A stretch of 64,000 bases of DNA from Alphaproteobacteria bacterium (GCA_965248835.1 CBDFLJ010000002.1:2112001-2176000); one strand, 5' to 3'. Counted from the stretch's first letter, positions 6,354 through 23,076 are shown. Numbers and translations: made by a program. The notes: generated from the letters alone by a model not told the origin.

Positions 6354-7518
6354 AAGCGTACTCTGTGCATAACTTGTCGGGGTCTTGAATGATGGACGCT
6401 GTCCCTCGGCGTGCAAAGAGGGATAAGCGCCGGCCCGTGCGATGTGCGATACCGACAAGGGTCAGCCGCGCCGACGGAACAGTTGCTCGGCCAAGTTGCC
6501 GAAATATTTCACGCCGCCGTCGGTCGCAAGGTCGGCGGCTAGAACGTCCCACGGCAATCCGGCAGTGATCGGTTTTCCGGCGCCAGCCGTCGGGACTCCC
6601 GGGAGCCATGCGGCGAGCTCCATCACCGTCTCCGGCTCGATGGTCTTGCCCGCGGTGATCTCGACCCCGTAGCCTGTCGGTAGCATCGCCTTGACAGATC
6701 GCATGGGCCGCATTGGGGAGGTCCGCGTGACGGTGCTTGAGGCGATGGAATATAACGCCCTGATGCGCGGGTTTTCCAAGCGGGAACAGACCATCGAACA
6801 GGTGGCGGGCTCCGTATTCGCCGAGAGGCGGCCAGACCAAACTTCCCTCACAAACGCGCAACCTAATGATGTGCCCGACACGGACGCAGAGAACGCGCAC
6901 CGGGGCGCACCGGGAAGTTACATTCGGGGTACGGAGCTTTTGCTCTCGTTGCGGCGCGGTTAAAACCCCCATCGACGTAAAAGACGCGGATAACCTGGTT
7001 GCGCTTGATCGTGGACGCGGGCGGAGGGGAGCCCGCCGGGGCATGGCGTCCGAAGCATCTCCTGCTGGCTTAACACGTCCGACCTCTGCTACAACAACCG
7101 GGTGGAGAAGAACGCCGCGGGCAAGATCCGGCCGATCAGCTTTTCTGGCAGCACGGTAAGCGGGACCTGGGTCGATGTCAGAGCTCACGAGGCGCGTTAC
7201 GAACTTTGCCGTGACATTTCGGGCGATATCTATTGCGAGAACGATCCGGAAGGCGGTGCGTTCACGGCGCCTTGAACATGCAAAACTGATAGACCGAAGA
7301 GCGGAGCGGATAAGGCTTACGCAACAACAGGCAGCCGCCGATCATTTGCGGCCCCGACCTGTCGGGGCGACGGCGGCGCCGCATGCAACGCGTCCGTCGG
7401 ATCCGGTCATCGGACCGAACGTCGGAGGCCGATCATCGGGCGGGGGCATCGCTCTCATCCCGGGCCTGGTTCTTAGCCAACTCTGCCGCGCTTCGGCTTC
7501 GGGCCCCGGGTGAGGAAG

Positions 7519-8925
7519 ATGAAACGGGTCGAGCTCCTGGCTGCGTCCTGTGTGGTGATGACGTGCTGCGCACTGTCGGCGCCCGCGGCCGGGGACGAGC
7601 ATGGCGGAGCGGAGGCTTCGCGCATGGAGCTGACGCTGGATGACGCGATCCGTCTGGCGCTGCGGAACAACCGGAGCCTGCTCGATGCACGCCTCGACCG
7701 CACCCTCGATGTGTTCGCGCTCGACGTGGCCGGCGACCGGTACCGCCCGAAGGCGAGCATCAGGTCGTCGGCGGACGCCGAGAGGGAAGGCGATCCGCGA
7801 GCGAACCTCTCCACCACAGGGAGCATCCGGGTTCCGACCGGCGGCGAGCTCACGCTAGGATGGCGGAAGCCCCTCGCAGGCGGAGGCAACGACTCCGGCG
7901 ATTACAGTCTGGGGTTCTCGCAGCCGCTGCTGAAGGGCTTCGGGATCGCGGTCGACACCGCTCCGCTGCGGATCGCCCGGCTCAGGGAGAAGATCAATAT
8001 CCTGAACTTCAGGGATGCGATCGCCGGGATCGTCGACTCGACGATCCGGAATTGGCGGGACCTGATCCGGGTGAACCGGCAACTGGAGATCGCCGAGGCG
8101 TCCCTCGAGAGGGCTCGGGAGCAACTGAAGGTCAACCGGACGCTGATCAAAGCGGGCCAGATGGCGGAGCGCGAAGTGCTCCAGAGCGAGGCGGAGATCG
8201 CCAACCGGGAGCTCTCGCTGGTGGAGGCGAGGAACGCTCTGATCGAGGCCAATTTCAATTTGATCGACACTCTGGACATCGATAGCGCGACCCTGATCCG
8301 CCCGCTGGAAACGCCGAGGGCTCGGCGGGCGGCGCCCGGCGTGGCGGAGGGCATCGAGGTGGCGCTGCGCAACGCGCCCGACTATTTGCAGGCGCTTCTG
8401 AACGCCGACATCGCCAGGATCGATCTGAAGGTCGCCGAGAACGACCGCCTCTGGGATCTATCGCTGGATACGGATGCGTCGCGTGCCGCCGGCGGCGGCC
8501 CGACCGACTATGCAGCGGGGCTGAGGCTGACGGTTCCGCTGTGGGACCGCTCCCCCCGCCAGGCATGGATGGGGGCCCGGGCCAGTGTCCGGAAGGCCGA
8601 GCGCGGCCTCGTGGAGCGGCGCCAGAAGATCGCCATCGACGTGCGCCAGGCGGTGCATAACGTCGTGGTCGGGCTGCGGCGGATCGAGCTTGCCCGTCAG
8701 GCGCTCGCACTCACGGAACAGAAGCTCGAGATCGAACGGAGCAAGCTGCGCCAGGGCCTGTCGTCAGCCTTCCAGTTGAGCCAGTTCGAAGACGACCTGG
8801 TGGCCGCGCAGAACGCCGAGGTGGACGCGGTCGTCAGCTACGAGAACGCGCTGACCTCGCTGGACCGGACCCTGGGCACGACGCTGGAGACATGGGACAT
8901 CCGCGTGGACCAGGTCGAGCGATGA
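7519..8925 (+). CDS. TolC-family outer membrane efflux/secretion channel
   Basis: Signal peptide, LTLDDAIRLALRNN, QPLLKG, two OEP helical repeats, LTVPLW, C-terminal LDRTLG; first gene of an adaptor/ABC operon. Confidence 0.9.
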   Translation: MKRVELLAASCVVMTCCALSAPAAGDEHGGAEASRMELTLDDAIRLALRNNRSLLDARLDRTLDVFALDVAGDRYRPKASIRSSADAEREGDPRANLSTTGSIRVPTGGELTLGWRKPLAGGGNDSGDYSLGFSQPLLKGFGIAVDTAPLRIARLREKINILNFRDAIAGIVDSTIRNWRDLIRVNRQLEIAEASLERAREQLKVNRTLIKAGQMAEREVLQSEAEIANRELSLVEARNALIEANFNLIDTLDIDSATLIRPLETPRARRAAPGVAEGIEVALRNAPDYLQALLNADIARIDLKVAENDRLWDLSLDTDASRAAGGGPTDYAAGLRLTVPLWDRSPRQAWMGARASVRKAERGLVERRQKIAIDVRQAVHNVVVGLRRIELARQALALTEQKLEIERSKLRQGLSSAFQLSQFEDDLVAAQNAEVDAVVSYENALTSLDRTLGTTLETWDIRVDQVER

Positions 8926-10697
8926 CGGACCGCGGCGTGGACATCCGCGGGAGCGTCCTTGACAACCTGATGGACGGGGTCATGGTGGTCGAGCTCGGCG
9001 GCTCGATCGGGATGTTCAATCCGGCGGCGGGCCGCATTCTCGGCCTCTCTCCCGACGAGGTGGCGGGAAGGACGTTCGCGGAGCTGTTCATCGCCCGCGA
9101 GGGCTTCGACGAGTTCACCGAGCTCATCCTGGACGCCGTCGGGAACAGGGGCGAAGGCGGCCGGCAGGTGGTTGCCCTGCATGCCGGCGGCGAGGCGCGG
9201 TCGCTTTCGGTGGCGACCTCGTATCTCAGATCGACCCGCGACGGCGCCGTCGAGCCGGTCGCCGTGATCGCCGTGTTCAGCGACATCACCGAGGTCCGTG
9301 AACTGCGCGAGACCGAGCTGCGCATGGCCAAGGCGGCGGAGGCGCAGCACGCCGAGCTGCAGACGGCCTACCGGCAGATCGAGGAGCGTAACGAGACGCT
9401 GGCCGCGACGTTGAAGAAGGTCCAGGTGGCGCGGGTGCTGGCAACGGTCCTGGTGATCGGGGTATTCCTGGGGGCCGGGGTCTACACTTGGAAACCCCTC
9501 GACCTGTTCGGCGGCTCATCGACACCGGCCGTCGTGTCGTCGGCCGATGCCGGCGTTGGCGAAGGCCAGCGCACGATGGAGGTCGAGCCGCGGCCGGTGC
9601 GCACGACGATCTCGCTGGTGGGCAAGCTGGCGCCCTGGCGCAAGGTGAGCGTCACGAGCCCGGTCGAAAGCCGCATCGGGAAGGTGCACTTCCAGTACGG
9701 CCAGAAGGTCGTGAAGGGCACGCTTCTGGTTGAACTGGACATCGCCGAGACCAATCGCGAGTACCGCGAGGCCCGGGTTGCTTATATCGACGCGCTGAAG
9801 AAGTTCGAGGCCATCGAGGATTGGGAGAACGGCCCCGAGATGGCCGACGCCCGGCGGTCGTTCACCCGGGCGAAGCTGGAGCTCGAGAGTCAGGAGAACC
9901 GGCTGAAGCGGACCGCGTTCCTTCTGAAGCAGGGGCTGGTCGCCTCCTCCGAGCACGAGGACGCGCAGCGGCAATATCGGGGCCAGCAACTGGACGTCGA
10001 GGCGGCTCGGCAGGACTTCGAGGCGGCGCGGGCCAGGGGCGGTCAGGAGGCGCGGGACAAGGCCGAGCTGGAGCTGGGCATTGCCCGCGAGAAGATGCGC
10101 GAGCTCGAGCAGAGCCTGCAGCGGAGCGCGATCCATGCGCCGCTCACCGGCGTCGTCCTCGCGCCGGCCGGGGTCGGCGACAGCAGTCTCACCGCGGGCA
10201 AGTCGGTCGAGAGGGGCGGGGTGCTGCTGACGATCGGCGACTTCGCGCGCATCTCTGCGGTTACCAAGGTCGACGAGGTGGATGTTGTGCGAATCAAGGC
10301 CGGCCAGGCGGTTTCGGTCACCGGCAACGCCTTTCCCGGCTTGACGCTGGGAGGAATTGTGACCCACGTCTCGTCGCAGGCGGAGGCGCGGTCGCGGGGC
10401 GCGCCCGAGTTCAGCGTGGTCGTGACGCTCGATCCTCTCGAGGCTGCGCAGCAGGGGCGGCTGCGGGCCGGGATGTCGAGCAATCTGAAAATCGTGGTCT
10501 ACCGGAACGACACCGCCCTGCTGGTCCCGATCGACGCCGTGGAACGGCACGGCAGGAAGCACCGGTTGCGGGTGGTCGACCGGGAGACCGGCGAGGCGCG
10601 GGCGCGCGAGGTCGAGCTCGGCCCCACCACTCTGGACTCGGTCGAGATCGTCGCCGGCCTCAAGCCCGGCGACGAGATCGTGGTGCCGGCGAACTGA
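8922..10697 (+). CDS. PAS domain-fused periplasmic adaptor (membrane fusion protein, MacA/HlyD family)
   Basis: N-terminal LDNLMDGVMVV...FNPAAGRILG...VFSDITE (PAS), coiled coil, TM helix VLATVLVIGVFLGAGVYTW, then adaptor motifs IHAPLTGVV, VDEVDV..IK.GQ.V, LRAGMS, GLKPGDEIV; ATGA overlap with the TolC gene. Confidence 0.88.
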   Translation: MTDRGVDIRGSVLDNLMDGVMVVELGGSIGMFNPAAGRILGLSPDEVAGRTFAELFIAREGFDEFTELILDAVGNRGEGGRQVVALHAGGEARSLSVATSYLRSTRDGAVEPVAVIAVFSDITEVRELRETELRMAKAAEAQHAELQTAYRQIEERNETLAATLKKVQVARVLATVLVIGVFLGAGVYTWKPLDLFGGSSTPAVVSSADAGVGEGQRTMEVEPRPVRTTISLVGKLAPWRKVSVTSPVESRIGKVHFQYGQKVVKGTLLVELDIAETNREYREARVAYIDALKKFEAIEDWENGPEMADARRSFTRAKLELESQENRLKRTAFLLKQGLVASSEHEDAQRQYRGQQLDVEAARQDFEAARARGGQEARDKAELELGIAREKMRELEQSLQRSAIHAPLTGVVLAPAGVGDSSLTAGKSVERGGVLLTIGDFARISAVTKVDEVDVVRIKAGQAVSVTGNAFPGLTLGGIVTHVSSQAEARSRGAPEFSVVVTLDPLEAAQQGRLRAGMSSNLKIVVYRNDTALLVPIDAVERHGRKHRLRVVDRETGEARAREVELGPTTLDSVEIVAGLKPGDEIVVPAN

Positions 10698-10712
10698 GCC
10701 GGGGGCGCCGCG

Positions 10713-11417
10713 GTGCTTCAGCTGCTGGACATCGAGAAGTCCTACAGGCTCGGGACCATGAACATCGAGGTCCTTCGCGGGGTCTGCCTGGAGGTGGCGA
10801 AAGGAGACCTGCTGTCGATCATGGGGCCTTCGGGAAGCGGCAAGTCGACGTTGATGAACATCATCGGGCTGCTGGGCCGCCCGACGGCGGGGTCGTATTT
10901 TCTGAACGGGCGCGACGTCCGGTCGATGAAGGACCGGGAGCTGTCGGCCTACCGCAACGCCAATATCGGCTTCGTGTTCCAGTCGTTCCAGCTGTTGGGG
11001 CACTTGACGGCGCTGGAGAACGTGGCCGTCCCGCTGGTGTACCGGGACATGGGCCGGGGCGAGATCCGGCGCCGGGCGCGGGCGATCCTGGAGAAGGTCG
11101 GCATGGGGGACCGCGCCGGGCACAAGCCGGACCAGCTATCCGGCGGGCAGAAGCAGCGGGTCGCGATCGCCCGGGCGCTGGTCGGCGAGCCCGCCGTGCT
11201 GCTCGCCGACGAGCCGACGGGGGCCCTGGATTCCGGCACCGCCGAGGAGGTCATGGAGCTGCTGACCCGGCTGAACGTCGAGGACCGGATCACGATCGTG
11301 ATCATCACGCACGACCCCTCGATCGCCCGGCAGTGCAGGCGGCAGACCCGGATCGACGACGGCGTACTGCATGAGATCGCGCAACCTCAGGACATAGGAA
11401 CGCGATGCGGCAGCTAG
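10713..11417 (+). CDS. ABC transporter ATP-binding protein (MacB/LolD type)
   Basis: Walker A GPSGSGKST, IGFVFQSF, LSGGQKQRVAIARAL, LLADEPTGALD, ITHD. Confidence 0.95.
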   Translation: MLQLLDIEKSYRLGTMNIEVLRGVCLEVAKGDLLSIMGPSGSGKSTLMNIIGLLGRPTAGSYFLNGRDVRSMKDRELSAYRNANIGFVFQSFQLLGHLTALENVAVPLVYRDMGRGEIRRRARAILEKVGMGDRAGHKPDQLSGGQKQRVAIARALVGEPAVLLADEPTGALDSGTAEEVMELLTRLNVEDRITIVIITHDPSIARQCRRQTRIDDGVLHEIAQPQDIGTRCGS

Positions 11418-12625
11418 GCCCCGCCCTGACAACCAACCTGCGGGAAGCGGCGCGCAGCCTTTACGGCGCCAGGCTGCGCACGCTCCTGGGGCTGATCGGC
11501 ATCATGATCGGGATCGCTTCGGTGATCACGATGATCTCGACGGGAGAAATCGCGACGGCCCAGGCGCGCAAGGAGTTCGAGGCGCTCGGCACCGATATCC
11601 TCACCATCCGCAAGTCCGACGACCTGATGACGGCGGAGGCCCGGCGGCGGGGGATCGCCATCGGCCTCGGCGACGCCCTGGAGGTCGCGGACGCGGTCCC
11701 GTCGGTCGCCGAAGCGGCGCCCCGGATCCGGTCGCAAGGCGGATTCGCCTATGCCGGCAAGCGTGTCGGCAACGGCGCCCTCCAGGGGGTGACGGCTTCC
11801 TTCGCGAGCGTGAACAAGCTGCGGGTGGCCGAGGGGCGGTTCGTGTCGGATTTGGATGTCGACCGCTATTACGGCGTGGTCGGCGCGGACATCGCAAACG
11901 CCATGCGCCGCCGCGGGGCGGGCGCGGTCGTCGGCAAGGTGCTGGAGATCGGCGGGCGCCTGTTCACGGTCGTAGGCGTGCTGGAGGCCAGGCCGGAGAG
12001 CTATGCGCTGCCGTTCCAGGTCGAGGCGAACGAGTCCGTGTTCGTGCCGATCACCACCGCGCGGCGGATTTCACCCCGTGCGGAGATCCAGCTGATCATC
12101 GCCCGCGTGCGGGCCGGCGTTCATTACTCGGCCGCCGCCCGGGACGTGCAGGCCTATTTCGGCAAACGGACCAGGGGGCTGGCGGTCGAGGTCACGAGCG
12201 CCGAACAACTGATCGAGCAGATGGAATCGCAGCTCGGCCTGATGACCCTTCTGCTCGGCGCGGTCGGCAGCATCAGCCTCATCGTCGGCGGCATCGGGGT
12301 CATGAACATCATGCTGATCTCTGTTGCAGAGCGGCGTCGGGAGATCGGGATCCGGCGCGCGCTGGGCGCCAGCCGCGGGGACATCCAGGGCCAGTTCCTG
12401 ATGGAGGCCGTCATCCTGACCTTGGGCGGGGGGATGGCCGGCCTGGTGTTCGGGACGGGGGCCACCTATGGGATCTGCCAGTTCACCAGTTGGGACTTTT
12501 TCATATCGCCGGTGTCCGTCATAGCCGGGATCGGCGTCTCGACCATCGCGGGCGTCTTCTTCGGCTTCCAGCCCGCCTATCAGGCGGCCCGCCTCGACCC
12601 GATCATCGCCCTGCAGGGAGGATAG
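11405..12625 (+). CDS. ABC transporter permease (MacB/FtsX type)
   Basis: LRTLL..IGI.IGIASV, large periplasmic domain, ISLIVGGIGVMNIML.SV.ERRREIGIRRALGA, PAYQAARLDPI.AL. Confidence 0.95.
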   Translation: MRQLGPALTTNLREAARSLYGARLRTLLGLIGIMIGIASVITMISTGEIATAQARKEFEALGTDILTIRKSDDLMTAEARRRGIAIGLGDALEVADAVPSVAEAAPRIRSQGGFAYAGKRVGNGALQGVTASFASVNKLRVAEGRFVSDLDVDRYYGVVGADIANAMRRRGAGAVVGKVLEIGGRLFTVVGVLEARPESYALPFQVEANESVFVPITTARRISPRAEIQLIIARVRAGVHYSAAARDVQAYFGKRTRGLAVEVTSAEQLIEQMESQLGLMTLLLGAVGSISLIVGGIGVMNIMLISVAERRREIGIRRALGASRGDIQGQFLMEAVILTLGGGMAGLVFGTGATYGICQFTSWDFFISPVSVIAGIGVSTIAGVFFGFQPAYQAARLDPIIALQGG

Positions 12626-12695
12626 CGCGCCCGCGCGGCCCCCTCGGCGGCGCAGGACGGAGACTGGCTGCGAGGACGGCAGCGTGACGAAGCGC

Positions 12696-13529
12696 GCCCC
12701 TGACGCCAATCCGCATCCTCGCCGCCGGGCCGATCTCCGGACAGGTCTTCGCCGTCTTCCGGATCGCGTTCGGGCCTGCCGACGCTGCACGACATGGTGC
12801 ACGTCCTTTGGGTCGGCCGGCCGACCGGCTTCCATGTCGAGCGCGACATTTCCTTCCCGTATCAGGGGCTTGAGATCCCATGCCGTCCCGCCCCCGACTC
12901 CACTGGCTCCGGGCCGGGTGCGGGGTCTGCTGCCTGCGCGTCGCGCCGGGCGCTCTACCGTGCCGCCGTCCGGGGCTTCGACGTGGTAGATCGCCGGACG
13001 CAACCTCACATTGCTTCCGCGACCTGGCCCGCACGGCTTGCGGGTGTAAGCTTGACAGTGAGGCGCCGCTGCTGGACATTCCCGGCAGCGTCAGGCGAGC
13101 AGGCCCACTGTCCGGCCCGTGCCATGGCGATGCCCCGGCACGGAACAGGAGGGTCCGAAAATGAAGTGGAATGCAGACCCACGCGCTCTCGGCAGTGTTC
13201 GCGCTCGCCTTGGCGGCGGCTGCTTGCCGGTCAGGCTCACGCCGCCTGCGGAGGCAGCCAGAGAATAGATCACGACGACGTCAACTGCCTGGAGGCCGGT
13301 TGGACAAACCACAATTTTCCGATTAAGGGTGACGCCCATGCCCGGAGCCAATGCTCTGCATATGGAAGGGTTCGTCGTAAAGGTCGACAGAATATCTGGC
13401 AGCGACTGGACATGGCATTTGACCAGCAGCAGCACGAGAGAGGACAGCGGCGGTTACAAAATCAGGGAGATTTCCTGCTGTTCCGACCTGAGCGATCTCT
13501 GCGACACGTCGGACATGGACGACGACGGC
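12696..13529 (+). repeat. copy A of a ~0.8 kb direct duplication (HTTM fragment + promoter + 5' half of the Cys-rich gene)
   Basis: Near-identical to 14151-14988 by direct reading, with small indels. Confidence 0.9.
13052..13080 (+). promoter_or_regulatory. sigma70-like promoter of Cys-rich paralog 1
   Basis: TTGACA-N17-GACATT; equivalent element upstream of all five paralogs. Confidence 0.65.
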
Positions 13530-13733
13530 TGCCTTGACAACTTCCGTAAGAGTAACGCGGATGATTCATGCAAGGATGAATCCGCCAGCTTCACTAGCCC
13601 CGACCAGTGCAGGATCGACGCGAGATGTATAGCGTGGAATCACTCCATTGAGCCGACAAACATCACCGTTCGCTATAAAGAAGTCCGAGATCTCCAAAAT
13701 TGTAATTCCGTTCTGACAGTCGGAGGGTGTTGA
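13161..13733 (+). pseudogene. secreted Cys-rich two-domain protein, paralog 1 (frameshifted)
   Basis: Aligns to 14625-15221 but has three +1 insertions in the 5' half; C-terminal domain CLDNFRKSNADDSCKD...QCRIDARC...DLQNCNSVLTVGGC is intact. Confidence 0.8.
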
Positions 13734-13814
13734 CTGACCCGGGGGTTCTGCGGCGGCCACCGGACTGATGTCCGGCGGCGGGCTCGAAAACATCGCGCCG
13801 CCGCACCGATCCTG

Positions 13815-13965
13815 ATCGCAGGATCACAGTCGTGATCGTCGCCGTGGCTGTATCGTCGTCATAATCCGTCACCCGATAGGTGTAGCTACCCGGTGTATCC
13901 GCGGTTGCGGTGTCGGACAGCACACGGGTGCCGGCGTCGAACGCCAGCCCGTCAGGCCCTCGGTG
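13815..13965 (-). pseudogene. fragment of a putative Ig/cadherin-like adhesin repeat
   Basis: PDGLAFDAGTRVLS...GSYTYRVTDYDDDTATATIT resembles the He_PIG pattern P.GL.FD..T..LSGTP...YT..VTD. Confidence 0.6.
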
Positions 13966-14078
13966 GAAACGCGCCTGCCGAAATGTCTTGCCCACCAACA
14001 GCCAACCAAACCCGACCGTCTCCTATGCCATGAACCAGGACATCGGATTGACACGGGCGCGCAACCCGAGCGGGCGCG

Positions 14079-14153
14079 CTATTCGCCCTGTAGAGCGACG
14101 ATCGGGTCGAGGCGAGCCGCCTGGTAAGCGGGCTGGAAGCCGAAGAAGACGCC
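14079..14153 (-). pseudogene. inverted 3' end of a paralogous MacB-type permease
   Basis: Reverse complement encodes GVFFGFQPAYQAARLDPIVALQGE*, versus GVFFGFQPAYQAARLDPIIALQGG* at ~12550-12625. Confidence 0.85.
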
Positions 14154-14189
14154 CCTGACGCGCATCCGCATCCTCGCCGCCGGGCCGAT

Positions 14190-14500
14190 CTCCGGACAGG
14201 TCCTCGCCGTCTTCCGGATCGCGTTCGGTCCTGCCGACGCTGCACGACATCGTGCACGTCCTTTGGGCCGGCCGGCCGACCGGCTTCCATGTCGAGCGCG
14301 ACATTCCCTTCCCGTACCGGAGGCTTGAGGTTCCGCCCATGGCGCCCCCTGACTCCACCGGCTCCGGGCCGGTGCGGGGTCTGCTGCCTGCGCGTCGCGC
14401 CGGGCGCTCTACCGCGCCGCCGTCCGGGGCTTCGACGCGACCTTCATCTACTTCTTCCTCCGCGGCCAGATACTCTACCGCAACCATCTCTACATGATCG
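14190..14500 (+). pseudogene. HTTM-domain (vitamin K-dependent gamma-carboxylase-like) membrane protein fragment
   Basis: Across frames: LAVFRIAFG...FPY..LE...LYRAAVRGF.ATFIYFFL..QILYRNHLYMI, matching the HTTM LAVFRI.FG and Y.NH.Y motifs; a shorter copy lies at ~12735-12995. Confidence 0.55.
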
Positions 14501-14558
14501 CCGGGCGCAACCTCACATTGCTTCCGCAACCTGGCCCGCACGGCTTGCGGGTGTAAGC

Positions 14559-14587
14559 TTGACAGTGAAGCGCCGCTGCTGGACATT
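14559..14587 (+). promoter_or_regulatory. sigma70-like promoter of Cys-rich paralog 2
   Basis: TTGACA-N17-GACATT. Confidence 0.65.
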
Positions 14588-14624
14588 CCCGGCATCGCCA
14601 TGGCACGGAACAGGGGGTCGGAAA

Positions 14625-15221
14625 ATGAAGTGGAATGCGACCCAGGCGGTCTCGGCGGTGTTCGTGCTCGCATTGACGGCGGCGCTTGCCGGTCAGGCCC
14701 ATGCCGCCTGCAGCGAAGGCCAGAGAATAGATCACGAGGACGTCAACTGCCTGGAGGCCGGTTGGACAAACCACAATTTTCCGATTAAGGGTGACGCCCA
14801 TGCCCGGAGCCAATGCTCTGCATATGGAAGGGTCGTCGTAAAGGTCGACAGAATATCTGGCAGCGACTGGACATGGCATTTGACCAGCAGCAGCAAGAGA
14901 GAGGACAGCGGCGGTTACAAAATCAGGGAGATTTCCTGCTGTTCCGACTTGAGCGATCTCTGCGACACGTCGGAAATGGACGACGATTCGTGCCTCGACC
15001 GGTTCCGGGCCAGCGCCGCGGGTGAGACATGCGAGGATGTATCCGCCAGCATCAATGGCGACCAAGAGTGCACGATCAACGCACAGTGTGAAACTTACAT
15101 ACGGCATAGTTTGGCGAGTGAACCTCAGAGGTGGATGGTGTCGGCAAGCACCACCGTGAGTTGGCGCGACGTTAAAGATCTCCGCAATTGCAAGGGCGAG
15201 CTGAAAGTCCGACGGTGTTGA
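14625..15221 (+). CDS. secreted Cys-rich two-domain protein, paralog 2 (198 aa, 12 Cys)
   Basis: Signal peptide MKWNATQAVSAVFVLALTAALAGQAHA; conserved VVVKVD, TWHL, CCSDLSDLC, DLRNCKGEL; purine-rich RBS. Confidence 0.88.
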   Translation: MKWNATQAVSAVFVLALTAALAGQAHAACSEGQRIDHEDVNCLEAGWTNHNFPIKGDAHARSQCSAYGRVVVKVDRISGSDWTWHLTSSSKREDSGGYKIREISCCSDLSDLCDTSEMDDDSCLDRFRASAAGETCEDVSASINGDQECTINAQCETYIRHSLASEPQRWMVSASTTVSWRDVKDLRNCKGELKVRRC

Positions 15222-15457
15222 CTGACCGGGAGGTCTGCGGCGGTCACTGTTCTGACGCCCCGCTTCTCCACGAACCCGCCCGATTGCGGGGAAAGAAGGC
15301 GCTCGCTCAAAACAGGATATAGCGCGTCAATTCGAGCGAAATAACCGCCGGTGATGCTGCAGCAGCATCGTGCGAAGCCCTCGATCGGCCGTGCCGGGCG
15401 CCGCATGTGCGCTGCCCGACGGCGCCGTACGGGCATCCTTAACCTTCCCGCACAGCC

Positions 15458-15486
15458 TTGACAGTTGCGCGCCGCCGCCGGAGAGT
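15458..15486 (+). promoter_or_regulatory. sigma70-like promoter of Cys-rich paralog 3
   Basis: TTGACA-N17-GAGAGT. Confidence 0.6.
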
Positions 15487-15537
15487 CCCGGCGATGGGCA
15501 GGTGAACGCCCCGGCCACTGAGCAGGAGGATCCGAAA

Positions 15538-16140
15538 ATGAATTGGAATGCAGCCCATGCGGTCTCGGCGGTGTTTGCGCTCGCATTGACGGCGGTGCTT
15601 GCCGGTCAAGCCCATGCCGGCTCCTGCGAAGGCAGCGACAGAATAGACCGCGACGACGCCGAATGCCTGGACGCCAATTGGAATAATCGTAAGGATTTGC
15701 TGAGCAGAGGCGAAGTTTGGGCAACGAACAAATGCTCCGACTACGGAACGGTTGTCGTGAAGGTCGATATAAAAAGCGCCAAGGACAAAACGTGGCATCT
15801 GGACCATGGCAATAAGAAGAAGGAAGGCACGGGCCTTTTCGATACCAGGAGTGTTTCCTGCTGCGCGGATCTGAGCGATCTCTGCAACAAGTCGGACTTA
15901 GCCAATGTCGATTCGTGCGTTGATCGTTGGAGGTACAGCTCGGCGAATGAGTCCTGCATCGATACATCCGTCGCCGTCAATGACGACCTAGAGTGCGTGT
16001 TCACCTCGCGGTGTCGCAATTTGGATGGGGATCGTAATTCGTCAACCATAGCCGCGAGCTGGCCCGACACGGTAGATCTCCACAACTGCGATGGCGTTCT
16101 GAGACTTGTGAAATCCGGGTCGTGTCCCGGTTCGAACTGA
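15538..16140 (+). CDS. secreted Cys-rich two-domain protein, paralog 3 (200 aa, 12 Cys)
   Basis: MNWNAAHAVSAVFALALTAVLAGQAHA signal; same 12-Cys framework; AGGAGG RBS. Confidence 0.88.
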   Translation: MNWNAAHAVSAVFALALTAVLAGQAHAGSCEGSDRIDRDDAECLDANWNNRKDLLSRGEVWATNKCSDYGTVVVKVDIKSAKDKTWHLDHGNKKKEGTGLFDTRSVSCCADLSDLCNKSDLANVDSCVDRWRYSSANESCIDTSVAVNDDLECVFTSRCRNLDGDRNSSTIAASWPDTVDLHNCDGVLRLVKSGSCPGSN

Positions 16141-16177
16141 TCGAAAGCGCTGTCGGTCTTTCGCGGCGCGTTTTCTC

Positions 16178-16219
16178 TTGTCACCCCGGCTCTCCGCTGC
16201 GCGCCGTCCGGGGTGACAA
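16178..16219. repeat. 12-bp inverted repeat (hairpin, terminator- or REP-like) after paralog 3
   Basis: TTGTCACCCCGG ... CCGGGGTGACAA. Confidence 0.55.
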
Positions 16220-16737
16220 ACGGGGGGGGGTCAGCCAGCCGGCGCTATGCCGGGCGGCCCGGCCAAGCCCCGGACCGGAGACCGGGGCGGCAAGTCGGGC
16301 CTGTCGAGGGCGTATCGGGACCGGCCAAGGGACCGCGGATTTCGAACCGGGACACGACCGAAATCTGGAGCGTGTTGACTGACCCGGCGTTCTGCGGCGG
16401 CCACCGGAGTGGTACCCCGCGGCGCGACGAACCCGACTCGATTACAAGGAGGAAGCGCCAATCAGGTGAGATAGCCGGCAGCGAAGCCGCGGCAGCGTCG
16501 CGGGAAGCCCTCGCGTTGGCCGTGCCGGCCATCCACGGCCCAGGTTGTGCAGGGCGCCGCGCAGGCGCTGTCCGGTGGAGAGATCGACGGTCTCAAGGCG
16601 AATGCCGAGCCCCGCCCTCGGGCGCATTCGACCGATGGCGCGACGCCCGCGCCGAGGAGGTCGACTTCTTCCGGCCCCGCCAGGCCCTCGGCCTTCAAAC
16701 CACCGTCAAGCTGATATCCCCGTCGCGCGCGTGACGC

Positions 16738-17294
16738 TTACCGGGGCGAAAGGCACTCTCCTCCAACGTGCAGATCGCCCGTACAGTTGTCGGGATTTGC
16801 GGTGTCGGACCAGCTCACGGTTACATGTGTCAGTCGATTGACCCCGTGCCCGCACGTATCCAGCATGCATTTTACCGCATCCCGCAATTGATCACGCACT
16901 CATCGCGCCGTTGATGCTGGAGGATGAATCAATCGTAGTCGAGGTCGGACCTGTTGCAAAGATCGCTCAGGTCCGTGCAGCGGTAAACCCGGTTGATCTT
17001 GTAATTGCTTTTGATTTCTCTCGTCTCTCTGCTCGGCAAATGCCGCGTGTAGTCTCGGGCACCCTCCATGTCGAGCTTTGCGGCGACCTTTCCGAGGCCC
17101 GAGCATAGGTCCCAGGCTCTGACGGCGTTCGGGTGCGCCGATGTCTCGTTTTTTCACTCGGCGCGCAGGCATTCCGAGCCCCAGCAGCTCGTTCTCTGGC
17201 CGCCGCCGCAGGCGGCATGGGCCTGAGCGGCAAGCGCCGCCGTCAAGGCGAGCGCGAACACCGCAGAGACCGCATGGGTTGCATTCCACTTCAT
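16738..17294 (-). pseudogene. secreted Cys-rich protein, paralog 4 (nonsense and frameshift mutations)
   Basis: MKWNATHAVSAVFALALTAALAAQAHAAC...CLRAE* (TGG>TGA), then KVAAKLD, RCTDLSDLCNRSD, and in another frame TVSWSDTANPDNCTGDLHVGGEC. Confidence 0.82.
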
Positions 17295-17385
17295 TTTCAG
17301 GTCCTTCAGCTACGTGCTGGGTCATCGCCGTGGCACAAGCCGGACAGCGAGCGTGCGTCCGCGCCGCTCATGTGCCGTCGCCGGG

Positions 17386-17414
17386 ACATTTTCCAGGCAG
17401 CGCGTACCTGTCAA
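17386..17414 (-). promoter_or_regulatory. sigma70-like promoter of Cys-rich paralog 4
   Basis: TTGACA-N17-AAATGT on the minus strand. Confidence 0.55.
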
Positions 17415-17906
17415 GCCCGCACCCTCGCGACGCGCGGGCGTGGCCGCACGACGCAGTCAGGGCTTGGGCGGGCGCGAGCCGGTGCATGCGATCCGCCACG
17501 GGCTGCGGTCAGGCGATGGGCCGCGAGCATGCCGAACGACAGGCCGGTCAGTCCGCCGAGGTCATCGGCAGCCAGACGATGAAACCGCTGGCCGCAAGCG
17601 TCATTTGGCAGTGGATATCGCCCGCGCATGGCCGACGTCCGGCAGCAATCCGGTGATCGTATCACGGTCAAAACAGGAAAACACGCCCACCGTCAGAACC
17701 TCATGACGCGTGGCAAGCGCGTTCGCCGTCACACTGTCGAACCTGTCAATGTCACACGACAGACACTACAATCGAACAGGCATCCGGTTCCGGATATGCC
17801 GGGTCAGGACGCGAGGCTCCCCCACGGTGGTGCGGCAGCCGCCCAGCGCATCCCTTCCGGATGATAAGCCATCTTCTGTGCTTGTGGTTCAGCAAGTGTT
17901 GCGGAC

Positions 17907-20900
17907 ATGCCTGATTTCAATGCCGCGAAGAATTCAGGGCCGGGAGACCGGACGCTGCACCAGATTTCGGGACGGAATCGGAAAACGTCGAGAGCGATCC
18001 TCGTCTGCCTGATCAGTGGGTTTCTCTCAGTCGGCGCGGCCTGCCTTGCCGAATCGGCGGCCACGGCCGGAGGTGGACAGAGCGGTTTCGTGGATATCAC
18101 TGCCGCGCTCGGTCTCGACTACCATGTGAAATCCGATCCGGAAGGAGAGGAAGCGGAGACGGACGGTCCAGACAGGGAGAATGGAGGCCTGGCGCTTGTC
18201 GACATCGACAATGACGGCAGGCTCGAACTCTACGTCGCGCACGGACGCGGCGAGACGGGCCGGCTGTTCAGCTACGACGGCAGCCGGTTCACGCGGCTCG
18301 CCGGCAATCGGGGCATCGAGCCGACGAGGATGGATCGTGCGGGATATTTCATCGATCTCGACCATGACGGCCGGCAGGACTTCGTGTCGGTCCAGTCGCG
18401 AGGCGTGGAAGCGTTCCGAAACGATGGCACGGGACAGTTCGTTGAGACGACGGGCCTGTTCGGCATCCGGCACGACAGAAGCACCCACTCGATGGCCGCC
18501 GCCGACATCGACAATGACGGTGACCTCGACCTGTTCTTCGCGCACTGGGGGAACATCTGGAACAGGTTCAGGCCGCCCTCGCACTATCTCTGGCGCAACG
18601 ACGGCAGGGGGCGCTATGCGGACATCAGCCACGTCGTGCCAATTCGCCCCACCGTGCATTATGAATTGGAAGGAAGCGCGCAGGACCCCTCCTACGAATA
18701 CTCCTTCACACCGACATTCGCGGATATCGACGCCGACGGGGATCCCGACATTCTGCTGGCAGGTGATTTCGGCTCCAGCCAGATCCTGCGGAACGAGGCC
18801 GGCACGGCGTTCGTCGACACAGGCGGCGGTGCGATCACCGACGAGAACGGCATGGGCGCCGCGGTCGGAGACTACGACCGGGACGGCGACCTGGACTGGT
18901 TCGTGACCAGTATCCATGACGCGGACGGCAATTCCGGCTTCGGCCCGACCGGAAATCGACTTTACCGCAATATCGACGGAACCGGCCGGTTCAAGGACGC
19001 GACCGAAGACGCAGGCGTGCGCGAGGGCGGCTGGGCCTGGGGCACCTGCTTCGCGGACTTCGACAATGACGGTCATCCGGACCTGTTCCAGACCAATGGC
19101 TGGTTCGGCGAATACATCGACGATGCCGAGGGCGAGTCCGTCGAGGTCACCGAGTTCCTGGAGGATCCGTCGCGGTTGTTCATGTCCAACGGCGACGGAA
19201 CATTCACCGAGCGCGCGTCCGAGCTCGGCATCCGTCATTCGGGCCAGGGGCGCGGTGTCGTGTGCCACGACTACGACGGCGACGGCAGGGTGGACATTTT
19301 CATCGCAAACAACGCCGCCGCGCCGACCGTCTATTCCAACGTCTTCGAGAACAACCACCATTGGCTCGCGATCGACCTGGTCGGCCGGTATGCGAACCCG
19401 CACGGGATCGGCGCGCGAGTCACCGTCCGCACGGCATCCGGCAATCAGATGCAGGAGATGCGACTCGGCAGCGCGTACCTGTCCCAGGCTCCTCCGATCC
19501 TCCACTTCGGCCTGGGCCGCGACCGGACGGCGGCCGTGATCGAGGTGCGGTGGCCCGGCCCCGGCAACCAGGTCAGCCGGCTGGAGAACGTCATCGCGGA
19601 CCGGCGCCTGACCATCCGTCAACCGGCGCCCGCCGGCTTTGCGCTCGGCGTCGTGGACGGCGCCGGCGGCGGCCTCCATGGCGAAGGCACGACGATCTCG
19701 ATCAAGGCGGCCGAACCCGCGAGAAACCATAGTTTCAGCCACTGGACCAGCGAAGGAGGCGGCGCGTTCGGCGATGCGCGGTCGCCAGAAACCACCTTCA
19801 CGATGCCCGCGAACCCGGTGACGGTGTTCGCCCATTTCCCGCCCGGACCGCCGCCGTCCAAGGCGGGCGTCTCGGTCGCGAGACGCTGGATCGAGGTGAT
19901 GCTGCAGGCGATCCGCGACGATTTCGCCCGCCCGACGGTCCATGCCCGCAACCTCTTTCATCTCTCGGCCGCGATGTACGACGCCTGGGCCGCGTATTCG
20001 GAATCCGCCAAACCCTACCTGCTCGGCGACGCCGACGCCGCGTGCATTCCCACGAGCGTCCCGCCCGCCGGCGATGTCCGGCGTGCCGCACAGGAGGAAG
20101 CGATCAGCCACGCCGCCTGGCGCATCGTCCGGCATCGCTTCCGGCAGTCGCCGAATGCCCGTCGCACCCGGAAGAACGCCGATACCCTGATGTCCGCCCT
20201 GGATTACGACACCGGTGCCGGGTTCGCGGGTACGGCGATCCGACCGGCCGCGGGCCTGGGCAAATGCATCGGCGAGTTCTATATCGCCCGCGGCCTGACG
20301 GACGGCTCGAACGAAGCGAATGCCTACCGGGCAGAAAATTATCGCCCCGTCAATCCGTCCATGGAACCGTACGACCCGGGCAATCCTGAATTGGAAGATC
20401 CCGACCGCTGGCAACCGTTGTCGCTGGGCCGGTTCGTCGATCAGTCGGGTTTCCTGATCGCGACCGGCGCTTCCGATTTCGTGACGCCCGAATGGGGCCG
20501 CGCGGCGCCGTTCGCGCTGACCGGGGACGATCTGACCGTCCATCAGCGGGACGGCGCCGCGTATTACGTCTATCACGACCCGGGGCCGCCGCCGAGCTTC
20601 CGCGGTCCGCTCGCCGACCTCTACAAATGGGGGTTTTCCCTGGTCGCCCTATGGTCGTCGCAGCTGTCGCCGGAGGACGGCGTGCTGATCGACATCGCGC
20701 CGTCCGGTATCGGCAACATCCGCGCCTTGCCCCGCAGGTTCGAGGACCATGTCGATTTCTACGACTCCGGTGCCGGAGGCCCGGGCCACGGGATCAACCC
20801 GGCAACCGGCAAGGCCTATGAACCCCAGTTGGTGCCCCGGGGCGACTATCTCCGCGTGCTGGCGGAATTCTGGGCCGACGGACCCGACTCCGAAACGCCC

Positions 20901-21710
20901 CCCGGCCACTGGTTCGTGATCCTGAACACGGTCAACGACCATGAGCTGCATGTCAGGCGGTTCGGCGGCGAAGGCCCCGAGCTCGGCGCCCTGGAATGGG
21001 ACGTCAAGGCCTACTTCGCCCTGGGCGGGGCCATGCACGACGCCGCCATCGCCGCCTGGGGGATCAAGGGCTGGTACGACTATATCCGGCCGATCTCGGC
21101 CCTGCGGGCCATGGCCGAGCGCGGGCAATCGAGCAATCCGGCGCTGCCCTCCTGGTCCGCCGACGGCATCCCGCTGGTCGAGGGATCGATCGAGCTGGTC
21201 GGTCCCGACGATCCTCTTGCCGGCGAACACGGCGAGCACGTCGGCGAAATCAAGCTACGTGCGTGGCGCGGCCCCGACTTCATCGACGATCCCGCGGCCG
21301 ATGCGGCCGGGGTCGGCTGGATCCTTGCCGGGAACTGGTGGCCCTATCAGCGGCCGTCCTTCGTCACGCCGCCGTTCGCCGGCTACGTGTCCGGCCATTC
21401 GACCTACTCGCGGGCGGCCGCGGAGGTGCTGACCGCGCTGACCGGCGATCCCTTTTTCCCCGGAGGCATGAGCGAATTCGAAATCACCGCGAACGACTTC
21501 CTGGTGTTCGAGCGCGGCCCCTCCGTCGACATGACCCTGCAGTGGGCGACCTACCGCGACGCCGCCGACCAGTGCAGCCTGTCGCGCATCTGGGGCGGCA
21601 TCCATCCGCCGGCCGACGACATTCCGGGGCGTCTCATCGGCGCCAGGATAGGCCTCGATGCCTTCAGCTTCGCGAAATCCTATTTCCGGCCGCTGCCGCC
21701 CCGCCGTTAG
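17907..21710 (+). CDS. secreted FG-GAP/CRTAC1-like beta-propeller + ASPIC/UnbV + vanadium-dependent haloperoxidase (PAP2) fusion protein
   Basis: Hydrophobic N-terminal segment; seven DxDxDG motifs; GIGARVTV..YLSQ..LHFGLG..IEVRWP (ASPIC/UnbV); KGWYDYIRP, PPFAGYVSGHS, SRIWGGIH (three PAP2/VHPO motifs). Confidence 0.88.
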   Translation: MPDFNAAKNSGPGDRTLHQISGRNRKTSRAILVCLISGFLSVGAACLAESAATAGGGQSGFVDITAALGLDYHVKSDPEGEEAETDGPDRENGGLALVDIDNDGRLELYVAHGRGETGRLFSYDGSRFTRLAGNRGIEPTRMDRAGYFIDLDHDGRQDFVSVQSRGVEAFRNDGTGQFVETTGLFGIRHDRSTHSMAAADIDNDGDLDLFFAHWGNIWNRFRPPSHYLWRNDGRGRYADISHVVPIRPTVHYELEGSAQDPSYEYSFTPTFADIDADGDPDILLAGDFGSSQILRNEAGTAFVDTGGGAITDENGMGAAVGDYDRDGDLDWFVTSIHDADGNSGFGPTGNRLYRNIDGTGRFKDATEDAGVREGGWAWGTCFADFDNDGHPDLFQTNGWFGEYIDDAEGESVEVTEFLEDPSRLFMSNGDGTFTERASELGIRHSGQGRGVVCHDYDGDGRVDIFIANNAAAPTVYSNVFENNHHWLAIDLVGRYANPHGIGARVTVRTASGNQMQEMRLGSAYLSQAPPILHFGLGRDRTAAVIEVRWPGPGNQVSRLENVIADRRLTIRQPAPAGFALGVVDGAGGGLHGEGTTISIKAAEPARNHSFSHWTSEGGGAFGDARSPETTFTMPANPVTVFAHFPPGPPPSKAGVSVARRWIEVMLQAIRDDFARPTVHARNLFHLSAAMYDAWAAYSESAKPYLLGDADAACIPTSVPPAGDVRRAAQEEAISHAAWRIVRHRFRQSPNARRTRKNADTLMSALDYDTGAGFAGTAIRPAAGLGKCIGEFYIARGLTDGSNEANAYRAENYRPVNPSMEPYDPGNPELEDPDRWQPLSLGRFVDQSGFLIATGASDFVTPEWGRAAPFALTGDDLTVHQRDGAAYYVYHDPGPPPSFRGPLADLYKWGFSLVALWSSQLSPEDGVLIDIAPSGIGNIRALPRRFEDHVDFYDSGAGGPGHGINPATGKAYEPQLVPRGDYLRVLAEFWADGPDSETPPGHWFVILNTVNDHELHVRRFGGEGPELGALEWDVKAYFALGGAMHDAAIAAWGIKGWYDYIRPISALRAMAERGQSSNPALPSWSADGIPLVEGSIELVGPDDPLAGEHGEHVGEIKLRAWRGPDFIDDPAADAAGVGWILAGNWWPYQRPSFVTPPFAGYVSGHSTYSRAAAEVLTALTGDPFFPGGMSEFEITANDFLVFERGPSVDMTLQWATYRDAADQCSLSRIWGGIHPPADDIPGRLIGARIGLDAFSFAKSYFRPLPPRR

Positions 21711-21824
21711 TCGCGGCGTTTGCGGTCCTCGGGCAGGCGCTGTCGGGCGATAGCTCCCATCAATTGGCATTGAGACTGCGCATTGATCACGCACTCGTCG
21801 CCGCCATTGAAGCTGGCGGTTGCA

Positions 21825-22196
21825 CTAATCGTCGTCAACATCCGACCTGTTGCAGAGATCGCTAAGATCCTTGCAGCAGTGAACCCCCTCGACATTGAAG
21901 AAGCGGGTGTTTCTTTTCTTCTCATTACCGTGGTCCAAATGCCATGTGTAGTCCGTGGCATTCACTAAGTCGACCTTTACTACGACCGTACCAAGGTTCG
22001 AGCACTGGTTCTGGGCTTTAACTTCACCATGGCTCAGCCAATTTATACTGTTGTCCCACTCGGCGCGCAGGCAGTCGGCGTTATCGTGGCCGATTCTCTG
22101 GCCGATGCCGCAGGCGGCATGGGCCTGACCGGCAAGCGCCGCCGCCAATGCGAGCGCGACCACCGCCGAGACCGCATATGCTGCATGCCACTTCAT
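21825..22196 (-). CDS. secreted Cys-rich protein, paralog 5 (N-terminal 6-Cys domain only; second domain out of frame and degraded)
   Basis: MKWHAAYAVSAVVALALAAALAGQAHAAC...VVVKVD..TWHLDHGN..HCCKDLSDLCNRSDVDDD*; ASFNGGDECVINAQ follows in another frame. Confidence 0.8.
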   Translation of the reverse strand: MKWHAAYAVSAVVALALAAALAGQAHAACGIGQRIGHDNADCLRAEWDNSINWLSHGEVKAQNQCSNLGTVVVKVDLVNATDYTWHLDHGNEKKRNTRFFNVEGVHCCKDLSDLCNRSDVDDD

Positions 22197-22287
22197 TTTC
22201 CGATCCTCCGGTTCCGTGCAGGGGCATCGCCATGGCACAGGCCGGACAGCGGGCCTGCTCGCGCGGTGCTCACCTGCCGCTGCCGGA

Positions 22288-22316
22288 AATCTTCGACAGT
22301 GGCGCGTCACTGTCAA
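22288..22316 (-). promoter_or_regulatory. sigma70-like promoter of Cys-rich paralog 5 with overlapping dyad
   Basis: TTGACA-N17-AAGATT; GACAGT-N8-ACTGTC inverted repeat overlaps the -35 and spacer. Confidence 0.6.
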
Positions 22317-22375
22317 GCCAATGTCGGGTTCGGAACATGGAGGACGGTGGTTTGGATTTCTCATGGAATCGCACC

Positions 22376-23076
22376 ATGAGCAACTTGGTGGACTGTGATC
22401 GGGAGCAGGCGTTTCTGCTTCCTCCCGATCTGCGGGACCGGGTCCCGGAGGATGATTTGGCGCATTTCGTGATCGAGGCGGTCGAGCGCGTCGATCTGGG
22501 CGCCTTCAAGGTGAACCATCGTGGCACGGGCTCGGCGCAACATCACCTCCGGATGACGCTGGCCCTGCTGATCTACTGCTATGCCAATGGGATCTTCTCC
22601 AGCCGCCGGACGAGACGCCGGGTCCGGACGAGCGGAGCAATTCGAGCGGCCCGGACAGCCGGCTGATGCGCAAGAGCAACCAGCACGCGTATCGCCAAGC
22701 CTACAACGCGCAGGCGGTGGTGGATGCCGGCGGCAGTCGGTTGATCGCGAACGCGCGGATCAGCCAATGCGCCGGCGACCGCAACGAACTGGTGGCGGAT
22801 ATCGCGGCGATGCCGGCGCCGCCGGAGGCGAGCGGCATCGAAGCCTTGGTGTCGACCGCCGCGAGTAGCTCTCGCCTACAACTGCAAGCGCTTACACGAG
22901 CCGAGCCTGGCGACGTGAAGCACCCCGGTGGAGCATGTCGCGACAGAGCAAGGGCGGCCACGCTGCGAGACGCCGCCGAACCGGCAAACGGACTCTATCG
23001 AGAAGAAACCGACGCCAACTCAGCCCAGCAACAAAACCGTACGCGATCGATGAACCAAAGCCCGACGGACCGCTAG
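22376..23076 (+). mobile_element. internally deleted IS1182-family transposase remnant
   Basis: DREQAFLLPPDLRD.VPEDDLAHFV...LLIYCYANGIFSSRR (DUF772-type N-terminus), MRK..AYNAQAVVD, C-terminal SPTD; split across frames. Confidence 0.85.

Follow-up and report, generated by a model that had tools for sequence, protein, structure and literature searches.

A MacB-type pump with a PAS-domain adaptor, recurrently linked to a modular family of cysteine-rich Sec-signalled proteins: a candidate two-step export route

What does a MacB-type pump with a sensor domain on its adaptor export, and are the cysteine-rich proteins encoded beside it its cargo? These questions are raised by a locus in a 64-kb stretch of DNA from Alphaproteobacteria bacterium (GCA_965248835.1; G000:C2:2112001-2176000), here called the window, whose coordinates are used throughout unless another contig or locus is named; the genome (G000) is in two contigs of 66-68% G+C. 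An island of ~16.7 kb (~6.9-23.1 kb), flanked by dxs (4419-6353) and by a minus-strand GST gene (23073-23714), carries genes for a TolC-like duct, an adaptor with a PAS domain, an ATP-binding cassette (ABC) ATPase and a permease, together with copies of a gene family encoding proteins with 12 cysteines and a signal peptide. Here, we document the gene content and domain architecture of this island and the recurrent adjacency and co-occurrence of pump and family in other genomes, which give the functional link between the PAS-adaptor MacB-type pump and the Cys-rich family real comparative support. We put the probability that the family follows a two-step route, Sec transport with disulfide formation and then MacB-TolC export, at about 0.5.

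The pump is encoded by four genes, all on the plus strand, whose ends overlap or nearly abut (7510-12625):

7510-8925, plus strand: TolC-like outer membrane factor of 471 residues, first gene of the operon; N-terminal signal peptide; PF02321 (OEP), E 1.6e-39.
8892-10697, plus strand: periplasmic adaptor of 601 residues; matches to PAS, PAS_4, PAS_9, HlyD_D23 and HlyD_3.
10713-11417, plus strand: ABC ATPase of MacB/LolD type, a polypeptide of its own; PF00005, E 2.6e-33; positions 4-221 of the MacB model NF007826, E 1.1e-71.
11405-12625, plus strand: MacB-type permease with four predicted transmembrane helices and a periplasmic core domain; PF12704 (MacB_PCD), E 3.1e-33; PF02687 (FtsX), E 3.2e-22.

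These Pfam and NCBIfam matches and the gene layout bear out the four-gene TolC/PAS-adaptor/ABC/permease operon proposed in a preliminary description of the locus. The ATPase and the permease, which aligns with positions 248-645 of NF007826, correspond to the two halves of the Escherichia coli MacB model, and the adaptor corresponds to MacA, whose equivalog model aligns with its residues 227-598 (E 3.4e-17); all score below the NCBIfam equivalog cut-offs, and the match of the TolC-like protein to TIGR01844 is likewise below the cut-off of that model. With a MacB core and FtsX-type permease, a HlyD/MFP adaptor and a TolC-family duct, the system is of the MacAB-TolC type, although its ATPase and permease are split between two genes with a 13-nt overlap and not fused into the single polypeptide of E. 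coli MacB. It is the only pump of its type in the genome, the sole other MacB_PCD gene being 0.8 Mb away.

In the adaptor, the PAS domain (residues 22-137) is N-terminal and is followed by a coiled stretch, a single hydrophobic helix (~183-205, read from the translation) and the HlyD/MFP region (227-598). Homologues of ~590 residues suggest that its true start is at 8922. This HlyD/MFP adaptor is presumably held by its one N-terminal helix, a predicted topology that would place the PAS domain in the cytoplasm. A search with its N-terminal 230 residues retrieved 244 clusters, and most of the best 120 of the 244 are ~590 residues long with PAS and MFP domains; we found no literature uniting PAS domain, HlyD, MacB and adaptor.

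The Cys-rich family is modular. An alignment of 18 members contains 12 invariant cysteines and a near-invariant signal peptide ending in AHA, and the mature protein of ~171 residues (~18.5 kDa) comprises an N domain of ~91 residues (~10 kDa) and a C domain of ~80 residues (~9 kDa). The two domains occur jointly, singly in proteins of ~120 residues, as arrays of up to six C domains, or at the N-terminus of proteins of 700-850 residues. A word-based search yielded 21 family clusters; a profile search of 1.84 billion representatives yielded 525 clusters (50% identity) at E <= 1e-3, 274 at E <= 1e-10 and 79 at E <= 1e-30. The products of three window copies (P2, P3 and P5, listed below) have no match in Pfam or NCBIfam, and the ESM Atlas gave no usable match to the family. 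An AlphaFold model of P2 (predicted local distance difference test, pLDDT, 74) is rich in beta structure in the N domain and alpha/beta in the C domain; comparison with PDB folds returned no usable match (best E 8e-3, TM score below 0.3). With neither a fold nor a family match, the label "lectin-like" that these proteins had been given is unsupported, and the N and C domains are defined here as two unannotated domain families.

The linkage of pump and family was assessed at 29 near-full-length PAS-adaptor loci in 14 genomes (25 tabulated loci and those of G000, G312, G243 and G045), whose positions were compared with all family matches. A family match lies within 6 kb of 15 of these loci, in eight of the 14 genomes: G000, G312, G402 (both of its loci), G404 (4/6), G407, G408 (4/6), G411 and G413 (1/5). 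Adjacency is absent from G401, G405, G414, G415, G243 and G045. We estimate chance adjacency at a few per cent per locus, with 1-40 matches in 2.5-8.8 Mb. The outcome that the preliminary description had named as fatal to its proposal, that PAS-adaptor operons would usually be unlinked to the Cys-rich family, is not what these counts give. Genomic co-occurrence points in the same direction: the PAS-adaptor is present in 10 of 16 family-bearing genomes (in two of these the sole copy holds a stop codon), as against 3 genomes in an even sample of 400 from the class. The family itself occurs in one genome of that sample, G312, which has both genes, 1.6 kb apart.

The linked loci are far from uniform. 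In maps of 20 records, the family gene lies upstream of the TolC gene on the same strand, divergent from it, or downstream of the permease. The adaptors at family-linked loci are 41-69% identical to that of the window, and one such locus is in a cyanobacterial metagenome-assembled genome (MAG). The neighbours of the pumps of G408 and G413, at L044:8506-9915 (minus strand) and L045:8636-10896, are either proteins in which a signal peptide and a Calx-beta-like stretch accompany three consecutive C domains, or sets of single C-domain proteins; the N domain is therefore dispensable for association with the pump.

In some genomes the pump is accompanied by a disulfide enzyme. A gene with DSBA and ScsC_N domains lies within ~65 nt downstream of the permease in five operons (L015, L038, L039, L042, L048) and nearby in L041 and L047, all seven records coming from three genomes. 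This neighbouring oxidoreductase of other genomes matches PF01323 (E 9.2e-27) and PF18312 (E 3.8e-12) and contains CPHC as its CxxC motif, which places it among DsbA/ScsC proteins; the window's genome has only a distant DsbA/ScsC copy, 48% identical, at C2:2575534. Such an operon-linked ScsC/DsbA gene fits the idea of Sec transport and Dsb action followed by the pump.

The forms that the family takes also differ with the pump. Six pump-negative genomes carry long forms, in which the family module is joined to Calx-beta and a beta-rich C-terminus. Among the apparent short forms of pump-negative genomes, three are in fact long forms that are cut by a contig end, internally deleted or frameshifted, and one is a true short form. 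A search for secretins (PF00263) in G000 (100% complete), G312, G401 and G407 was negative, so that a type II route for the family is not apparent.

The long forms at L006 and L007 comprise a signal peptide, the family module, Calx-beta (E 4e-20) and then ~500 residues ending in F or W. In a low-confidence AlphaFold2 model of the 847-residue long form (pLDDT 51), a helix at 323-345 is followed by roughly 20 predicted strands; Foldseek secures Calx-beta alone, and the resemblance to an outer-membrane barrel is weak (E about 3e-3). The layout of the long forms, with a signal peptide, an N-terminal passenger (family module and Calx-beta), a long helix and a beta-rich C-terminus of ~400 residues ending in F or W, recalls that of type Va autotransporters, whose C-terminal translocator domain is a 12-stranded beta-barrel. 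The Pfam autotransporter beta-domain (PF03797) has no match in the long forms, and the model confidence and barrel resemblance are low. We read the long forms, on this low-confidence model, as a possible autotransporter-like display of the module. Because the module would stand at the tip of a Calx-beta stalk, it appears to work outside the cell, which suggests an extracellular binding role for the pump's candidate cargo as well. Directly upstream of the long-form gene at L006 lies a 1037-residue relaxase/helicase-like open reading frame (ORF; L006:6003-9116), of TrwC/TraA type by reading of the translation only; this putative gene hints that some family copies ride on conjugative elements.

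The genome collection contains 26 family loci in 16 genomes, mostly alphaproteobacterial MAGs; the carriers include a Defluviicoccus, "Rhodospirillaceae bacterium Spongia_Bin9", a Rhodobacterales MAG and the cyanobacterial MAG Aphanocapsa feldmannii 277cV. Two of the 16 are associated with sponges by name. The cyanobacterial MAG has 40 hidden Markov model (HMM) matches to the family, some of them on contigs (C84, C1, C60) with phycobilisome genes, which rules out binning contamination for the family; the MAG's complete pump is on a contig of 17.6 kb. The organism is a sponge symbiont (PMC6506613, cited for part of its content), and the main text of that Ca. Synechococcus feldmannii genome paper, its supplementary data sets aside, contains no mention of cysteine, signal peptide, haloperoxidase or TolC. 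A literature search on cysteine-rich secreted proteins and MacB of sponge symbionts did not find the module. The same MAG (G402) has a decayed second pump locus, L037 (G402:C87:96676-100029), which lacks both ATPase and permease: all that is left of TolC is its last ~145 residues, the PAS-adaptor is full-length, and two N-domain genes come immediately after it.

The evolution of the family copies within G000 bears on a different explanation of their function. Among its five intact copies, the signal-peptide codons have synonymous distances (dS) of 0.13-0.42, and the mature domains have dS of 0.18-1.04 with pairwise ratios of nonsynonymous to synonymous change (dN/dS) of 0.5-1.6, values that are rough since dS is near saturation. 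The pattern is one of a homogenised 5' end and fast-changing mature domains. Such a pattern, in a multi-copy family shared between phyla in one habitat type, might be expected if the Cys-rich proteins were Sec-dependent, bacteriocin-like antibacterial toxins and the MacB-type transporter mainly protected the producer, whether or not it exported the toxin; a transporter that protects the producer has been proposed for lactococcin 972-type systems. The ATPase does match TIGR03608, "putative bacteriocin export ABC transporter" (E 4.5e-57), but at 192.8 bits, under the cut-off of 254.85 and below the scores of the MacB and LolD models, so that the ATPase does not qualify as that of a lactococcin 972-type export/immunity system. 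Furthermore, no toxin family or fold was matched, a dedicated immunity gene is not apparent, and a module carried on a Calx-beta stalk, as in the long forms, suits binding, not killing. We consider a toxin function improbable.

The copies in the window are in varied states of preservation. Searches with tblastn and HMMs identified five copies of the 12-Cys family, P1 to P5, of which only P2 and P3 are intact, together with a relic of a larger member and the repeats and promoter-like elements associated with them:

6920-7422, plus strand: relic of a larger member of the Cys-rich family, interrupted by stops and a change of frame; tblastn with the L038-L043 proteins, E 3e-13 to 4e-11.
12550-12638, unstranded: left arm (89 nt) of inverted repeat I5, at the 3' end of the permease gene; right arm 14066-14154, 90% complementary; the arms bracket the P1 cassette.
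13050-13160, plus strand: TTGACA promoter-like box and conserved 5' untranslated region (5'UTR), from nine aligned upstream regions; repeats I9, I12, D7 and D9. The same box and 5'UTR lie at 14557-14624, 15440-15537, 17295-17400 (minus strand) and 22197-22318 (minus strand).
13161-13733, plus strand: P1, a broken copy in three reading frames, with three 1-nt insertions (~13176, 13219 and 13373).
14625-15221, plus strand: P2, intact, 198 residues; signal peptide, N domain and C domain.
15538-16140, plus strand: P3, intact, 200 residues.
17294-16753, minus strand: P4, a pseudogene with internal stops (2 TGA), loss of one cysteine of the CC pair and a frameshift before a C-domain relic.
22196-21825, minus strand: P5, signal peptide and N domain in a 123-residue ORF, with a TAG stop exactly at the domain boundary.
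22148-23076, plus strand: transposase fragments at the right edge of the island; weak DUF772 match, E 0.0026.

Contigs derived from reads of public runs (four contig sets from one sample) support some of these lesions and qualify others. They span the P4 region (16379-18263) free of gaps and agree with the truncation of P5, to which a 123-residue protein, P0036, is 99% identical; the C-domain relic of P5 follows in another frame (21731-22196, minus strand), and the gene is convergent with the haloperoxidase gene described below. An intact 189-residue protein, P0002, is identical to P1 over residues 21-189, and the read-derived contigs lack a base at 13218/13221. Misassembly or strain variation may accordingly account for at least part of the break in P1, and the gene may be whole in the organism itself or in a sister strain. 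For the two-contig genome G000, marker-gene contamination is given as 9.51%, perhaps owing to marker duplication or to mixing in the assembly; this figure bears on the trust to be placed in single-base indels such as those of P1. The read contigs also lack 17 nt at 14054 and 3 nt at 16222 and have many single-base differences between 15027 and 16666, which probably reflects a variant of the cassette array in a co-existing strain.

The preliminary description had spoken of an operon followed by five paralogs of an expanding family. Five copies with 12 cysteines and a signal peptide can indeed be recognised, but P4 and P5 are on the minus strand, and with two copies intact and four broken or reduced to relics the family is not expanding at this locus. 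Nor do the copies follow the operon as part of one transcript: every cassette comes with a promoter-like box and 5'UTR of its own, and is therefore a separate transcription unit. The same box and 5'UTR precede dispersed copies on C2 at 820779 (c820), 851776 (c851, minus strand) and 2384058 (c2384), and are lacking from the frameshifted c850. The 5'UTR of ~110 nt, with deletions in P2 and P3, has a possible short hairpin just before a Shine-Dalgarno-like GGAGG, and could act as a common regulatory RNA or operator. The rest of C2 holds three intact family copies, one frameshifted copy and C-domain-only pieces; at G000:C2:495760-496914, far from the pump, is an array of three tandem C-domain-only matches (E 1.5e-13 to 4.8e-10).

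A second permease 3' end had also been reported next to P2 and taken to suggest more than one linkage of exporter and Cys-rich gene. The copy exists: permease residues 381-405 match 14085-14159 on the minus strand (88%). As an inverted fragment of 75-89 nt, or 25 codons, it gives no evidence of a second exporter, which its length and orientation rule out, and we interpret it as the mark left by the duplication that gave rise to P1 and P2.

The relic at 6920-7422 is directly upstream of the TolC gene, in a slot that intact homologues of ~260-400 residues fill in other genomes, and is the only match of its kind genome-wide. The large TolC-adjacent members (L038-L043; 275-410 residues, 18-24 Cys) have an extra, Cys-rich middle domain with the motifs CxKDQVE...THxxRYxxC...YC and RPCGG...CxCGDHxCD. 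In G404 and G408 the operon begins with a family gene, immediately ahead of TolC, and the relic occupies the same slot here. This position might mean that family proteins are not cargo but serve the pump, either as accessory parts in the periplasm or outer membrane or as regulators. Genes for such a subunit should not number up to 19-40 per genome, nor should it take the form of single domains, tandem arrays and fusions to surface-display scaffolds, and in the window the pump is intact while the upstream copy is a relic. An accessory role is thus very improbable.

The remaining large gene of the island encodes a haloperoxidase fusion:

17907-21710, plus strand: protein of 1267 residues with FG-GAP/ASPIC (CRTAC1-like), Flg_new_2, DUF6851 and vanadium haloperoxidase (VHPO)-like PAP2-type domains by Pfam, including PF22778 and PF21167.

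It bears an N-terminal hydrophobic signal, matches vanadium haloperoxidases of the PDB (E 2.4e-11 to 3.8e-6) and contains KGWYDYIRP, YVSGHS and SRIWGGIHPPAD, which we take to be the three PAP2-type motifs. The fusion belongs by these features to the vanadium haloperoxidase/PAP2 superfamily, and it may have a halogenating activity. It recurs beside the pump at five loci (the window, L035, L046, L047 and L017), and at L009 it lies beside a family gene, convergent with it as in the window. Its own family is very large, however: 7984 of 8000 candidates scored matched at E <= 1e-3, and the best 120 homologues listed, its own cluster aside, are 62-84% identical, some being labelled Gammaproteobacteria MAGs or Halioglobus japonicus. 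A literature search on vanadium haloperoxidases and FG-GAP in sponge symbionts did not find the module. The fusion noted earlier as a secreted propeller-haloperoxidase is thus real, but it is a recurrent neighbour from a very common family, not itself new and no speciality of the island.

These neighbours are relevant to the strongest challenge to a cargo role, in which the pump serves some other substrate (which could be a small molecule, a lipid of the envelope, a peptide from a host or competitor, or the product of the neighbouring haloperoxidase-like enzyme) and the Cys-rich genes hitch-hike on a horizontally shared island, their products staying in the periplasm or at the surface or leaving otherwise. 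Known substrates of MacB-type pumps are mostly small (PMC5985334, cited here and below for part of its content), 14 of the 29 pump loci have no family gene within 6 kb, and the haloperoxidase fusion accompanies the pump at five. The cassettes have their own promoters, and insertion sequence (IS) fragments lie at the island edges both here and in the closest relative (G401), beside whose operon is an IS fragment that the translated transposase fragment of the window resembles. Hitch-hiking nevertheless explains poorly why adjacency recurs in varied orientations beside pumps so divergent (the 41-69% given above being adaptor identities). Moreover, a ScsC/DsbA gene linked to the operon suggests that the client is a protein with disulfide bonds, the short forms are nearly confined to pump-bearing genomes, and the haloperoxidase family, very large as it is, is mostly found elsewhere. 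We regard another substrate as unlikely, though worth serious consideration.

Several observations nevertheless weigh against the two-step export of the family by this pump. Fourteen loci are unlinked, among them that of the closest relative, G401, whose adaptor is 84% identical and whose nearest family gene is 38 kb away; its permease is followed by an IS fragment, a ScsC-like gene and a haloperoxidase gene, and no family relic was found beside its operon, even at relaxed thresholds with filters off. G243 and G045, also among the unlinked, have the PAS-adaptor and no family match, and one true short form occurs in a pump-negative genome. Within G000, the distance between the one pump and three of the intact copies ranges from hundreds of kb to >1 Mb, a promoter for each cassette means that co-transcription is not implied, and the state of the locus, where most copies are broken, does not look like strong selection on a cargo. 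The mature protein of ~18.5 kDa exceeds 10 kDa, the possible upper bound for such pumps (PMC5985334). Finally, the compared genomes were mostly found through the family itself and are related to one another, so that the counts overstate independence. A complex prediction for two permease copies and mature P2 gave a score of 0.00 in a run without controls and counts neither way.

Taken together, these data leave the two-step route at the even odds stated at the outset, and a sequence of events can be proposed for it. Each cassette would be transcribed from its own conserved promoter and 5'UTR, and the near-invariant signal peptide would route the product through Sec. Six disulfides would then be made in the periplasm, aided in some genomes by the operon-encoded ScsC/DsbA-like enzyme, and the MacB-type permease and ATPase, a hexameric adaptor and TolC would expel the folded domains (~10 and 9 kDa) across the outer membrane. 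The activity of the pump may be set by the PAS domain from the cytoplasmic side.

A wider view is possible but tentative, and we hold it with less assurance than the route itself. The loci may represent a distinct, PAS-gated class of MacB-type two-step protein secretion, whose cargo would be modular, disulfide-knotted domains of ~9-10 kDa, present singly or in pairs as free proteins, in tandem arrays or at the tips of self-exporting surface proteins. Horizontal transfer would have spread the pump, the cassettes and the ScsC-type isomerase between symbionts belonging to different phyla, namely Alphaproteobacteria and a sponge cyanobacterium. Outside the cell, the fast-evolving cargo modules would serve for binding at the interface with host or matrix.

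STII and dispersin/CexE are the few proteins known to be exported by MacB-type pumps, and the size limit of a folded protein passing such a pump is an open question (PMC5985334). The module offers graded natural cargos (single domains, two-domain proteins and arrays) and a pump with a predicted built-in cytoplasmic sensor domain and, in some genomes, its own disulfide enzyme, so that cargo recognition, size limit and regulation become testable in a heterologous host. The two domain families are also candidates for the interface between symbiont and host, being multi-copy in a sponge cyanobiont and present in a sponge-derived alphaproteobacterial bin.

Among known systems, a functional parallel can be drawn with MacAB-TolC of E. 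coli, a tripartite assembly of MacB-type permease/ATPase, HlyD-family adaptor and TolC that exports STII after Sec transport and DsbA action, the cargo being disulfide-bonded before export (PMC5985334). In contrast to that system, the window has a split ATPase and permease, an N-terminal PAS domain on the adaptor, TolC within the operon and cargo genes clustered with the pump; its candidate cargo has ~171 residues and 12 cysteines, whereas STII is a small peptide with two disulfides, and its proteins score far below the equivalog cut-offs.

A different likeness, in gene arrangement, is to AatPABCD and CexPABC of enteroaggregative and enterotoxigenic E. coli, in which a dedicated MacB-type pump with its own TolC-like duct is encoded beside the Sec-dependent cargo, dispersin or CexE (PMC5985334, PMC7943197, the latter also cited in part). 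Aat exports dispersin, a folded domain of ~10 kDa that possibly marks the upper size bound and is near the size of each family domain here (PMC5985334). The cargo of the window is unrelated by Pfam and is disulfide-rich, multi-copy and two-domain; its candidates have no Pfam or NCBIfam match that would place the locus in the Aat/Cex type. Between dxs and the GST gene, the interval searched for it, no further ORF with a family match such as an AatD-type acyltransferase was found. We know of no PAS-adaptor in Aat systems.

The split form of ATPase and permease is known from DevCA and LolCDE (PMC5985334), and in DevBCA-HgdD (TolC), the glycolipid exporter of Anabaena, it occurs in a MacB-type pump (PMC5985334). 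The substrate of that system is a glycolipid and its adaptor has no PAS domain, and the Dev models match the window weakly (DevA, DevB; DevB 59.5 against a cut-off of 129, DevC 16.8 against 290). The cytoplasmic N-terminus of DevB is required for export and not for assembly (PMC5985334), and by analogy this may serve as a precedent for control of the pump through the cytoplasmic end of its adaptor. Set beside these systems, the locus has an even chance of representing export of the STII/dispersin type in a new form, joined to two undescribed domain families.

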